DNA of 64,000 nt from Planctomycetota bacterium (lineage in GTDB: Bacteria; Planctomycetota; PLA2; JAEUHO01). The stretch lies in the NCBI GenBank assembly GCA_965222115.1, contig CBDCTJ010000003.1, positions 1 to 64,000 of the forward strand. Direction: 5' to 3'. The notes under the pieces are model-generated. The model was not told where the DNA came from and did not search any database. It worked only from the letters and a program-made list of their open reading frames with translations. The translations under genes were made by a program, and so were the position numbers. This document shows, piece after piece, positions 16,434-20,001 of the stretch (its first letter is position 1; every line of letters begins with the position of its first letter).

Positions 16434-16937
16434 ACAGGTGGCTCCCCGGCGGATTCGATGGAAATCTTGCAATACCGAATCATGAGCCAACGGTTCGTGC
16501 AGCCCAAGCAGACATTGTTGGATGCAAACGCAATGGCCGCGCGGATCCTGGCGACGTCAACTGGCTTCCCGCAAGTGCACAGAGGGTCCCACACAGCCAT
16601 GCTCTTGAACCTCCACAAGCGGACTCATCGAGTCAAGATCCAGCATAGGAAGTGCAAGTGATTTCGAGAGTATGTATTATGAACTCAACAGCTTCCTAAG
16701 CTGAATGTCGGGAGTCCGAATCTCATTGGGTACTTCTTGAGTTGATCGGAAACAACTATCGCGAGAAGGTGACCAAGAGGCGGTAGCAAGAAAATTGGAA
16801 TCGAAAAGAGCAAAGCCAAGACTCTGCCCTTTATGGAAGACCAGCCTGCATTACGTGCTGGCTGGCAATGACGTGCTCCCCGAATTCGATACCGGGTTGA
16901 GTGAGAGTTTCCGCATCGTATGATGAGGAGACAGAGC

Positions 16938-17216
16938 ATGAAGAAGAAGCGTCACAATCCTGAGCAGGTGATCCGCAAGTTGCGGAAGGCCGAGCAGATG
17001 AAGTCTGCTGGCAAGTCCGTAGGTGAGATCTGCCAAGCCCTGGAAATCAGCGAACAGACGTACCACCGTTGGAAGGCACGTTACGGAAACGCCGATGCAA
17101 GCGTGGCGAAGCGCGTTCGAGAGCTAGAGGCCGAGAACCGGCGCCTTAAGAAGGCTGTTGCCGATCTCACGATTGACAAGCAGATTCTCAAGGAGGTCGC
17201 CGAGGGAAAATGGTAG
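16938..17216 (+). CDS. IS3 OrfA (HTH) transposase subunit
   Basis: MKKKRHNPEQVIRKL..LEISEQTYHRWK..LEAENRRLKKAVADL. Confidence 0.93.
   Translation: MKKKRHNPEQVIRKLRKAEQMKSAGKSVGEICQALEISEQTYHRWKARYGNADASVAKRVRELEAENRRLKKAVADLTIDKQILKEVAEGKW
17204..17210 (+). promoter_or_regulatory. Putative -1 programmed frameshift site G_GGA_AAA (orfA/orfB)
   Basis: X_XXY_YYZ heptamer in the orfA frame just before the orfA stop; a -1 shift enters the orfB frame (GKMVGP). Confidence 0.75.
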
Positions 17217-17781
17217 GCCCAGCTCGCAAGCGCGAGGCTGTTCGCCTTGTGCGTCGCCGGCTGGGCTACTCCGAACGTCGAGTTTGCCGTGCACTTGGCG
17301 TGTCTCGTTCCACGGCGAGGCGCAAGCCTGCACAGTCAAGACTCAATCTCAAGCTACTGGAGCGCATTCTCGAACTCGTGCGTGTAAATCCACGGTTTGG
17401 CTACCGTCGAATCCACGCGTTGCTTCGGCGCGAGGGCTGGAAGATCAACCTAAAGCGTGTGCATGGCATTTGGCGCCGAGAGGGCCTAAGAGTCCCTAAG
17501 AGACAAAATAAGCGCATGCGGCTGGGCTCAAGCGCACAGGGTTGTGTTCGGAATCGAGCAACGCATCGGAATCACGTTTGGACGCTTGACTTCGCGTGGG
17601 ACGTGACCAGCGAGGGGCGACAGATAAAGTTCTTGCCGATCGTTGATGAATACACGAGGGAGTGTCACGCGTTGAGCGTAGGAAAGTCGATTCGCGCTAC
17701 TGACGTACAAGACACTCTTGAGCGTTTATTCGAAGAACAAGGGGCACCTATGCACATCCGCTGCGCGTGCTATGTCTCTTT

Positions 17782-17787
17782 TGTCAA
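17782..17787 (-). promoter_or_regulatory. Perfect -35 (TTGACA) of a putative circle-junction promoter
   Basis: It points out of the element end. After circularisation it sits 17 bp from GAGTAT (weak -10) and faces the transposase. Confidence 0.6.
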
Positions 17788-17789
17788 CC

Positions 17790-17990
17790 TGTGATTCTGA
17801 GAAACCGTGGGATGTCCAATCGAGCAACGGATCCGAGCTTTCCCTATTTGGGTGCTCAACGTGCCTCATCCGGACTGAACCCGAAGGAGCGGAGGGTGCC
17901 AAGCGGAGCTGTCGGGATGTCTCAAATCGAGGTCCCATGACAACGGACGACATGTCCTCCTCTCCGATTTCTCGGAGCCTTCGGTAAGTT
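17790..17990 (-). ncRNA. Candidate bridge/seek RNA in the IS110 3' non-coding end
   Basis: GAAA-tetraloop hairpin at 17962-17977, further stems, and short segments matching the reconstructed target and donor (see findings). Boundaries are guessed. Confidence 0.55.
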
Positions 17991-17991
17991 C

Positions 17992-19245
17992 TTAGGCTGC
18001 TTCGGTACTTTTCTCCTTCCATTGGTGATTGACGTCGAAGGGGACGCGCTTCTTCATCACCGCGAAGGCGTAGAGAAGCAGCTTATTCATACAAGCACCA
18101 AATGCGGCCATCTTGGATAGAGGTCGAACGGCGCGATTAGTGAGGTGGTCGTAATGTGCGGCGATGCGGGGGTTGTGCTGGGTGGCGGCCAGTGTCGCCA
18201 TATATAGGATGGTTCGAAGTTGGCTGCGACCGCGGCGAGTCATGCGAGTCGCCGGATCGGCATTGCCCGTTTGTCTTCGTCCAGGATTTGTGCCTGCAAG
18301 CTTGATCAGTTGACGACCGTTTGCGTAGTTGTCAATGGGGCCAATCTCAGCGATCAAACCGGCGACGGTCAACCAGGACATACCGGGAATCGTTGAGAGA
18401 TACTCGGCCTCCTCAATGCAATTGAGTGCACGCTGGATCTCGGAGCCGAGGTCGTCCATTTGATCTTGGGCGAGGTCGATGCGTGCGACTAAGCGCTGGA
18501 TCTCACTTGCCAGAACTTGGTTTCCTTGTCGCGGTGCGACGCTTGTTTTGGCCTTTTCGATGAGTTGTCGGACCTTGTGCCGCCAAAGTCGCCGGCCGCG
18601 CGCGGCTTCTTTGGCTTGGGCTACCAACTCTGGCTCTGACATCTGCGCGATATCGAATGGTGTAAGTCCCAGTCGTAAGACGGCCAGCGCGCCGGGTGAG
18701 AGCGTCTTGGACCAATTGCCTGTGAACTCGGGAAACCAGCCGTAGATTTGATGCGCGAGGAGTGTTTTGAGTCGGGCTCGCTCAAATCTTAGGCGACTAA
18801 GTTCTCCCCAGGCACGGCGAAGCGCAACGTAGTTGGGTGGCATCAACTGCGTCTGCGTGACCATGCCGATACGCAAGAGGTCAGCGATCTGTTCCGCGTC
18901 CGTGATGTCGCGTTTGTCGCGTCCCATTTGGCGTGCCTCTCGCACCCGATGGGTGGCCAGTGGATTGACAATGGAGTAGCGTTCTCCGGCTGTTGCGAGA
19001 TAATCTGCGATAGCAGGCCAAACATGCCCCGTGGCCTCGAACGCGTAGTGCGCCCTCCCATTCAAAGGAACATGGCGAGCTGCGCGCCGACGAAGCTCTT
19101 GGAAGCCTTGGATCGAATGAGGGATTTTAAATCGCGTGATGCGTGAGCCGCTGGCCCCGAGAATGGCCACGACATGACCAGTAGTGGCCAGATCGATTCC
19201 AACCGCGATATCTTGAGGACTGAGGTGAGGGCGCTTGAGTTCCAC
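17992..19245 (-). CDS. IS110-family DEDD recombinase/transposase
   Basis: AVGIDLA, FEATG, VNP, KRDITDAE, LSTIPGM, AGTNPGRRQTG, RRGRSQLR. AGGAG-preceded GTG start; frame intact. Confidence 0.95.
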   Translation of the reverse strand: MELKRPHLSPQDIAVGIDLATTGHVVAILGASGSRITRFKIPHSIQGFQELRRRAARHVPLNGRAHYAFEATGHVWPAIADYLATAGERYSIVNPLATHRVREARQMGRDKRDITDAEQIADLLRIGMVTQTQLMPPNYVALRRAWGELSRLRFERARLKTLLAHQIYGWFPEFTGNWSKTLSPGALAVLRLGLTPFDIAQMSEPELVAQAKEAARGRRLWRHKVRQLIEKAKTSVAPRQGNQVLASEIQRLVARIDLAQDQMDDLGSEIQRALNCIEEAEYLSTIPGMSWLTVAGLIAEIGPIDNYANGRQLIKLAGTNPGRRQTGNADPATRMTRRGRSQLRTILYMATLAATQHNPRIAAHYDHLTNRAVRPLSKMAAFGACMNKLLLYAFAVMKKRVPFDVNHQWKEKSTEAA

Positions 19246-19311
19246 TGTGTGTACTCCTGATTCGTGAGAGTTTTGGGAGACACAGAGTAGGGCCAGGGGC
19301 CTCGCCTCACT

Positions 19312-19367
19312 TAGCACGCGAGTATGTCCTTCTCGAAGGCCTCTGGCCTCCAAGAAGGACATACTCG
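19312..19367. repeat. Inverted repeat whose inner arm (19312-19333) is the exact reverse complement of the element's circle junction
   Basis: tagcacgcgagtatgtccttct versus junction agaaggacatact-CG-cgtgcta. Confidence 0.9.
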
Positions 19368-20001
19368 ATAACGGTCCAGAGTTCGTTGCGAATCAACTGC
19401 GCGAATGGCTTGCGCGCCGAGGAGTGTTGCCGCTCTACATCGAGCCAGGAAGTCCATGGCAAAACGGATACGGCGAATCGTTCATCGGGCGTCTCAGAGA
19501 TGAGGTCTTGAACCGAGAACTCTTTACGAGCTTGCTCGAAGCTCAAGTCGTCACGGAAGACTGGCGAATCGAGTACAACAAGAGTCGACCGCACGGTGCG
19601 CTTGGCTACAAAACCCCAGAGGAATTTGCAGCTTCGTGCATCCGCGCCGCCTAGGGCGGGTGCGCGGCACGGAGGCACGAAGCAAGAAAGTTAGGGACTC
19701 TCACAACCGCTGGTAGCGCTATTGGGGGCACGTCAAACGAGTTACGCCTGATTTGAGTTCTGGTAGCCCTTGCACAAGTGTAATTGTCGCTGGCACAACT
19801 GCGTACTTAAATTTGGCACCCTCTGAACTGAGTTCTGAGGAGTGCGACAGTTACAACCAAGTTCGCCCAATCAATCAGACACGAATTCGTGTGGGGCAAT
19901 CGCACGCGACGAATTCAAGCCAAATAGAGCGCGCGCGACTAAGATGACTTTCGAACTGGGAGTGGCTTCCATGCTCGTGCGGCAACGGCTGACAAACGAC
20001 A

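Follow-up and report, generated by a model that had tools for sequence, protein, structure and literature searches.

A complete inverted copy of the joined-ends donor site inside an IS110-family element: probable trace of one inverted duplication

The first 64,000 nucleotides of contig CBDCTJ010000003.1 from a Planctomycetota bacterium (GenBank assembly GCA_965222115.1), hereafter the window, contain an insertion sequence (IS) of the IS110 family, with a DEDD recombinase of the bridge-RNA-guided type. Coordinates throughout are positions in this window. Close to its left, transposase-proximal end the element carries a 30-nt inverted duplication, the outer 22 nt of which are the exact reverse complement of the junction formed when the two ends of the element are joined. 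The copy has probably originated as an inverted duplication, made by a template switch or fold-back on the joined ends. The whole reading, in which the duplication arose on the joined form and the copy has no selected role, is given a probability of about 0.6. The internal copy is thus better regarded, on balance, as a single-lineage sequence trace of the joined form than as conserved transposition machinery. In its machinery the element is ordinary for the family: the recombinase is of the DEDD type, the junction promoter has one half in each end, and the right end carries a bridge RNA with two loops. The internal copy is no general regulatory principle of the family. We infer the template-switch mechanism, the young age of the copy and the absence of a selected function.

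Anatomy of the internal copy and its likely origin

The element body occupies positions 17766..19365 (1600 bp plus one shared CG). The element and all of its features named below are read from the minus strand, apart from the strandless CG cores, and left-end positions are counted inwards from 19365. The duplication lies at 19312..19341 (left-end positions 25–54, as delimited by a deletion scan), with the outer 22 nt at 19312–19333. On the plus strand, 19312–19333 is the exact reverse complement of 19353–19365, the CG core and 17766–17772. Reading and a script both confirmed this match, which the original prediction had put forward together with the 7 nt from the far end. The position given there for the copy stood as well, while that of the termini had to be corrected: the terminal 13 nt are 19353–19365 and the CG is 19366–19367. 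Of the 30-nt template, 21 nt belong to the left end, 2 to the CG core and 7 to the right end. The left-end part (19345..19365, left-end positions 1–21) comprises the right half of the donor, most of a −10-like hexamer and the 5′ arm of the palindrome, and the last 7 nt of the right end (17766..17772) are next to it only in a circle or tandem.

Over its whole length, the segment 19312–19341 agrees with the reverse complement of the 30 nt that lie upstream in the joined form at all but two positions (28 of 30, 22 of them consecutive), across a 3-nt spacer. The spacer is the palindrome loop AGA (19342..19344), seen both in the repeat search and in the RNA fold. The repeat search returned arms 19319–19341 and 19345–19367 (23 nt, 91% complementary, 3-nt loop) and a second pair, 17764–17775 and 19309–19320 (12 nt, 92%), according to which the match to the far end extends three more positions with one mismatch. 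Both mismatches of the stem fall in its inner 8 nt; in DNA each is a G-T, which becomes G.U in the transposase-sense RNA. The left-end hairpin measures 23 bp and grows to 30 bp, with 28 of 30 positions paired, once the ends are joined, much as had been foreseen for the excised circle.

The CG core at the left-end border (19366..19367) and that at the right-end border (17764..17765) were placed by sequence reading and with the help of an uninterrupted variant. The latter is a contig of the sister sample X2 (depth 7.4) that holds a diverged, uninterrupted copy of the IS3-like gene into which the element is inserted; there, 17742 is joined to 19366, with 21 nt in place of 17743–17763. Since this variant has a single CG at the site of the element, the borders on which the junction had been reconstructed are confirmed. 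The element has CG at both borders against one CG in the empty site, no terminal inverted repeats and no target duplication beyond the shared core dinucleotide. Contigs of two samples of one study (X1, which may be the source sample, and X2) span the hairpin with no differences, which makes an assembly artefact unlikely. In sample X2, a second IS3-like variant is the commoner one (depth 7–10 against about 4), carries no IS110 insertion and shows about 20 single-base differences over window positions 17335–17665 and 19396–19667.

In the proposed course of events, DNA synthesis would run through left-end positions 1–24, and a template switch or fold-back would then copy the reverse complement of the preceding 30 nt. 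The template would be a circular intermediate or a head-to-tail tandem, because these 30 nt are contiguous only with the ends joined; the 7 copied right-end nucleotides do not match the present flank, so the integrated locus would not have served. The mutated element would subsequently integrate at the usual target. Template switching has been described to yield perfect hairpins and the expansion of inverted repeats (PMC8794818, PMC13100816). A preprint (10.1101/2025.10.25.684509) describes top-strand copy-out for an IS110 element, and copy-out requires second-strand synthesis across the new junction, which would provide a natural occasion for such an error.

Other explanations of the palindrome were considered and rejected. 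The arm is not the sub-terminal inverted repeat (STIR) of the family, which is the ATA/TAT pair directly flanking the donor. A target mimic of the ISPpu9 kind can be discounted, since the left-end palindrome does not resemble the target. A remnant of a second, inverted element would not contain a joint between right end and left end. Palindromes made by the recombinase through the palindromic CG core would be centred on the core and not on the AGA loop. A cruciform switch over the promoter is unlikely, as the centre of the palindrome is GC-rich and mismatched.

Distribution of the copy among relatives

The relatives found by protein search share 50–72% identity with the recombinase of the window and are nearly all metagenomic. 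DNA was obtained for 129 loci, and both ends were located in 52 of them, 35 of which are non-identical. The end patterns were unmatched in the other 77 loci, which are distant relatives of 24–33% identity or truncated contigs or elements. The relatives compared as DNA have 49–60% protein identity, and the closest proteins, P0002–P0006 (67–72%), lie outside the DNA comparison. Within the 35 relatives, which served as a control, the longest inverted match of each element to its own 50-nt junction was 5–8 nt in the left end, thus never above 8 nt there, and over the entire element it did not exceed 9 nt. A 14-nt word of the junction was found on neither strand of 161 other loci; the only four loci containing it were the window itself. 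The original prediction had proposed to check whether the copy in relatives follows their own junction sequence. No copy was present in any of the 35 relatives, nor the junction word in any of the 161 other loci, and the roles that had been suggested (decoy or operator, second donor, antisense 5′ untranslated region (UTR) or cruciform switch) gained no support from the relatives. The sequences sampled offer no comparative evidence for a function of the copy.

The left-end non-coding region of the element is 120 nt long, and the distance from the left end to the start codon, 123 nt here, is 81–107 nt in the 35 relatives; without the duplication, and with the start codon included, it amounts to 93 nt. 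In the deletion scan, segments of 10–55 nt were removed at every start from the left end of the window, and the remainder was globally aligned to 17 representatives. The best deletion removed left-end positions 25–54 (or, equivalently, 24–53), that is, 19312–19341, and raised the summed score to 187 from −119 for the undeleted sequence. This optimum coincides exactly with the 3′ arm of the palindrome, and with the segment removed, the left end aligns to those of the relatives via a common purine-rich motif. The folding energy of the junction region is −62.1 kcal/mol here and −21.7 to −47.3 kcal/mol in the 32 relatives folded. The 30-nt segment appears from these alignments to be an insertion relative to the sampled relatives.

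One genome contains at least 12 near-identical copies of a relative, which indicates that relatives transpose without the copy. These loci (L041–L051, L054 and L055) belong to a Vicinamibacterales genome and lie mostly inside paralogous rve genes; L047 and L055 are truncated at the right end, and the flank of L044 does not look like rve.

Closer relatives were sought in several other collections. The metagenome scan yielded no full-length locus closer than 60%, and its partial matches L160 and L161 (62–67%) have no recognisable left end. A first search of genome contigs with a single protein query found no relatives, and a second one used the alignment A1 as the query. No relatives were found among viral contigs, and plasmid searches by protein and by DNA gave either none or none above 32% identity. 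Sixty taxonomic relatives of the bacterium contained distant IS110 proteins only, at no more than 33% identity. The metagenome contig L128 (positions 1–70) opens with the final 10 nt of a right end, and a left end of that subgroup follows directly, lacking its first A; a circle or tandem junction of a relative may have been captured here, or the arrangement may be an artefact of the contig end.

The motif CTCGCGT(G), the reverse complement of the donor centre, was considered as a conserved 7–8 nt homologue of the copy. It is found at left-end positions 49–66 of L038, L052, L099, L109, L058 and their close relatives, which represent two subgroups. It was rejected, as it belongs to the stem that pairs with the Shine-Dalgarno sequence (SD) and aligns elsewhere after the deletion scan. 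A match of this length is expected by chance at an estimated 0.07–0.27 per element, and its presence in the two subgroups is either due to chance or marks a short pairing site for a donor guide.

The protein tree is one of several points that weigh against a recent, unselected duplication. FastTree places the clade of the window (with P0002–P0006, support 100) as sister to the clade of all relatives known as DNA, so one loss in the latter is as parsimonious as one gain here. The supports for the sister clades are 85–86 and come from FastTree only, and the rows L058, L057 and L060 are truncated translations of 51–138 amino acids (aa). Every relative compared as DNA has at most 60% protein identity, and MAFFT alone gave an ambiguous placement of the gap in the left ends. 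The switch points have no clear microhomology. Both mismatches are confined to the inner 8 of the 30 positions and are G.U-compatible in sense RNA, a pattern that hints at selection favouring an RNA stem or disfavouring a perfect palindrome. The perfect 22-nt match, standing in a left end that otherwise can barely be aligned between groups, could reflect maintenance rather than youth. Finally, the copy preserves the donor bases read by the RNA and five of six flank bases and so may not be inert.

The unpolarised direction of change in the tree is also what favours an ancestral origin within the family followed by one loss in the sister clade, the copy then being a maintained structural element and not a recent accident. 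Palindrome arms are prone to precise deletion, which would ease such a loss. On this account, however, 22 of 22 positions must have stayed identical while the rest of the left end diverged past easy alignment, and no sampled lineage beyond that of the window shows the arm. An ancient origin is accordingly considered very improbable, and an inverted duplication in the lineage of the window remains the preferred explanation.

Bridge RNA, donor bases and target

The right end, a non-coding region of 226 nt, holds a canonical predicted bridge RNA on the 3′ side of the gene. Folded as an alignment, 18 right ends give a consensus structure with two stem-loop domains with internal loops and 42 pairs, 17 of them with compensatory changes. 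Alignment and this fold delimit domain 1, with the predicted target-binding loop (17886..17965), and domain 2, with the predicted donor-binding loop (17814..17876). In domain 1, the putative target guide CCGUUGUC (17939–17946) matches the left half of the target, and UCCGCU (17902–17907) is complementary to the right flank of this insertion. In domain 2, the donor guide GCACG (17860–17864) equals the last 5 nt of the right end, and the donor guide N-CUCG (17821–17825) is complementary to the core and left-end positions 1–3. The N of the latter pairs with left-end position 3 in 34 of 35 relatives (A-T in 21, C-G in 9 and U-A in 4), and the donor-guide motif was not found in the remaining one. 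The donor span read by the bridge RNA is about 10 bp, namely GCACG, the core CG and left-end positions 1–3, which agrees with the earlier expectation of short, split donor guides. Durrant 2024 (PMC11208160) describes an ATA/TAT pair flanking the IS110 donor. A search of positions 17000–20000 against Rfam at permissive thresholds gave only chance microRNA matches and no matching family.

In the window itself, the donor guide has G opposite left-end position 3 (G-T), where the relatives have a Watson-Crick partner, and, for the target guide, the occupied target differs by A for G (GTTAT, not GTTGT). Both guide mismatches would be rG-dT wobbles; they could be tolerated wobbles or an early decay of a single-copy element.

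In the elements with located ends, the right ends finish in the same 9–10 nt followed by the core, and the left ends begin with AG(T/G/A)AT. A TTGACA motif, recognised by comparison across the elements as the putative −35 element (17782..17787 in the window), stands at a distance of 18 nt from the terminus of the right end in 32 of the 36 non-identical elements. When the ends join, a spacer of 17 nt separates it from a GAGTAT-like hexamer, to which the core contributes its G and the left end its bases 1–5. The joined ends would consequently form a predicted promoter, as had been proposed along with the family assignment and the CG core, both of which were upheld by the protein domains and the borders. 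No sigma-70-like promoter was found in the promoter scan within the integrated element.

This promoter and the strength of the left-end fold bear on a possible role of the copy at the RNA level. The arm would give transcripts a strong 5′ stem-loop: only about 10 bp of stem at the 5′ end of those starting at the junction promoter, where it could stabilise the RNA, and the full 23–30 bp in read-through or round-the-circle transcripts, where it could serve for RNase III-type processing or shield the element from transcription entering from outside. The transposase-sense RNA folds at −66.1 kcal/mol (z = −5.8), with none of 200 shuffles as good, and both stem mismatches are G.U in the sense strand and A-C in the antisense strand. 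Of the 32 relatives folded, 26 are predicted to pair 6–13 of the first 15 left-end bases further inside the element and the other six 0–1 of them, and one subgroup has compensatory changes in such a stem (by eye). The transposase of ISPpu9 is described as regulated via the structure of its 5′ UTR (PMC12288879). On the other hand, two transitions share a strand by chance half the time, the transcription start is a deduced one, and a separate predicted hairpin that sequesters the SD already provides a block of translation. A selected RNA-level role is therefore rated as unlikely.

The latter hairpin (19242..19290, from the RNA fold) covers the AGGAG SD and the GTG start codon. In the left ends of relatives from every subgroup, a pyrimidine-rich anti-SD stretch pairs with GGAGG upstream of the start (by eye). 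The predicted anti-SD pairing looks like a family-wide translational block of the transposase.

The donor bases preserved in the copy are the ground for two further explanations. On the plus strand, all 10 guide-read bases of the internal site (GCACG, CG and AGT) are identical to those of the true junction, and its flank is TTA/TAT instead of the ATA/TAT of the family, which retains five of six bases. To judge by these bases, the element permanently carries an inverted look-alike of its donor at a distance of 45 nt from the true left border. The complex of recombinase and bridge RNA might bind it as a decoy or operator that damps activity, or might use it as a second donor; recombination without excision could then invert or delete DNA, produce cointegrates or let the circle open at another point. 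Bridge recombinases are known to invert or excise DNA between suitably oriented sites (Durrant 2024, PMC11208160). Nevertheless, no circle junction, inversion or other rearranged joint was present in the assembled contigs of four runs, although contigs lose rare variants, and a constitutive chromosomal donor would mostly cause harmful rearrangements. The relatives do without the copy, and in expanded IS110 loci, according to a preprint survey (10.64898/2026.08.14.744561), internal half-donor matches occur while complete pairs are essentially absent. Even with all guide-read bases in place, a standing decoy, operator or second donor is thus an improbable explanation.

The other explanation concerns the single-stranded form. 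On a single-stranded top-strand circle, the copy could pair with the junction and supply the bottom strand of the donor in cis, and the recombinase–bridge RNA complex would meet a duplex donor without second-strand synthesis. It is in line with this that the complete donor is represented in the copy (7 right-end nt, the core and left-end positions 1–13) and that the stem reaches 30 bp when the ends are joined. Top-strand single-stranded DNA (ssDNA) is described as able to integrate, with double-stranded DNA about 20-fold better at the LD-RT joint (10.1101/2025.10.25.684509), and Xer integrates the ssDNA of CTX phage by exchange of one strand pair followed by replication (PMC3442271). In an adaptive version, the copy would fold onto the junction of the top-strand circle and replication would complete integration; such a self-templated donor would, by analogy, be the bridge-RNA counterpart of the folded single-stranded attachment sites of Xer-dependent phages and integron cassettes. 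As a corollary, the circle could open at either of the inverted donors, which would give two integrated isomers. Yet the copy is absent from 35 of 35 relatives, several of them multi-copy, the present element is single-copy in its own genome, and the copy-out model comes from one preprint on a distant IS110 element. We consider a hairpin donor, and equally its self-templated version, to be improbable. The decoy, second-donor, hairpin-donor and RNA explanations alike are reached by inference, and little weight is assigned to any of them; an inverted duplication without a selected role is preferred.

The core dinucleotides differ between the two borders. At the left border, 36 elements have CG in 16 cases, CC in 10, CA in 5 and CT in 5, the second base being the wobble base of the target codon, while at the right border CG occurs in 32 and CC in 4. 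According to this asymmetry, the left joint retains the core of the target and the right joint that of the donor. Such a pattern would result from top-strand cuts on the 3′ side of the core, provided that the product follows the top strand. Evidently, a match at core position 2 is dispensable.

The reverse complement of the codons for D-N-G-x-E-F is present in 25 of 35 flanks (34 relatives and the window), the D-N-G part being forced by the pattern used to find the ends. The clade with this bridge RNA appears, from its flanks, to insert into the reverse complement of these codons in DDE (rve) transposase genes, in other words, to be an IS that hunts other ISs. No description of a D-N-G-x-E-F target of such elements was found in the literature, supplements lying outside the search. 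The flanks compared are those at the left border, in the window 19367–19384, and the strict 18-nt target pattern occurs once in the genome of the window, at the occupied site.

The interrupted gene belongs to an IS3-like element on the plus strand. Domain matches identify orfA (HTH_Tnp_1) and the N-terminal part of orfB (HTH_21, rve) at 16920..17763, and the C-terminal part of orfB (rve, rve_3) at 19368..19654; the break falls within codons for D-N-G-P-E-F. The transposase (recombinase) gene of the IS110 element (17992..19245) encodes 417 aa with DEDD_Tnp_IS110 and Transposase_20 domains, starts with GTG at 19245 and is preceded by the AGGAG SD. The domains PF01548 (DEDD, RuvC-like) and PF02371 (C-terminal) are matched with E = 1.4e-22 and 1e-21, respectively, and the motif G-x-x-P-x-x-x-x-T-G, as defined in PMC11187229, is readable in the open reading frame. 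The 4.5 Mb genome contains one copy of the element.

With respect to the subgroups, the long non-coding region with an RNA downstream of the transposase gene is an IS1111 trait that is present here. The sub-terminal inverted repeats consist only of ATA/TAT, extended in some members to 4–6 bp, against the 7–17 bp given for the IS1111 subgroup (PMC11208160), and the transposase has 417 aa against the 330–350 aa or so expected of that subgroup. IS110-proper transposases are described as having 395–455 aa, and some IS110-type elements have a 3′ non-coding region (Siddiquee 2024, PMC11187229). Measured against the subgroup descriptions, the element is set apart from the IS1111 type by its protein size and STIR length.

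Significance and closest known systems

The literature searched, supplements lying outside the search, yielded no account of an IS110-family element with a complete inverted copy of its donor. If the proposed origin is true, the element records that its two ends were once contiguous and used as a template for DNA synthesis, and the inverted duplication is natural, PCR-independent evidence for the joined form, be it circle or tandem. The duplication would be compatible with the replicative (copy-out) models debated for IS110 elements. The lineage is also a natural test case in which a bridge recombinase faces a complete inverted donor and a 30-bp palindrome beside the crossover point, a situation relevant to how bridge editors behave at off-target and self-target sites. 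That a DNA stem-loop next to an IS110 site can be of consequence is reported in a preprint (10.64898/2026.03.19.712850). More generally, the element belongs to a well-sampled clade with a 3′ bridge RNA, in which covariation reveals the guides, donor, core tolerance and target.

Among known systems, the STIRs of IS1111 and IS110 elements are similar in that they are inverted repeats near the ends that flank a programmable donor (PMC11208160, PMC11187229). The STIR of the window is of the short ATA...TAT type, extended to a 6-bp pair that stands 9 bp apart across the junction (by eye). STIRs are described as one copy per end, whereas here a third, contiguous copy of donor and STIR, complete with the core and with bases of the opposite end, lies 45 nt inward from the left end.

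The A-box palindrome of ISPpu9 (PMC12288879) is likewise an inverted repeat at the very left end with no established role, and its mutation did not abolish circle formation in the experiments described. It is short (GCCC-N4-GGGC), conserved among relatives and similar to the target; in contrast, the arms here are 23–30 bp long, are found in one lineage and resemble the donor junction and not the target. The half-donor matches in expanded IS110 loci (10.64898/2026.08.14.744561) share with the copy the presence of donor-like sequence away from the true termini, whereas the copy comprises the complete LD-core-RD, is inverted and lies at no boundary. The stem-loop that acts as a specificity gate in the target of ISPpu10 (10.64898/2026.03.19.712850) is another DNA stem-loop beside an IS110 recombination site. 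That stem-loop is part of the target, is conserved and has had its function tested, while the present one is on the donor side of a single element and is known from its sequence.

The substrate of Xer recombination in CTX phage is a folded hairpin of two inverted sites. The likeness to the folded single-stranded attachment site of the CTX phage/XerCD system (PMC3442271) is that the inverted site copies on an IS110 circle could also fold to a duplex. There, the recombinase is a protein-guided tyrosine recombinase and the mechanism is established; for the present element, it would be a putative one.

The hairpins produced by template switching (PMC8794818, PMC13100816) share with the copy the formation, in one step, of a perfect stem from the reverse complement of adjacent sequence. 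They differ in their template, which in the present case would span a transient recombination joint, so that the resulting hairpin would record the joined form of the element.

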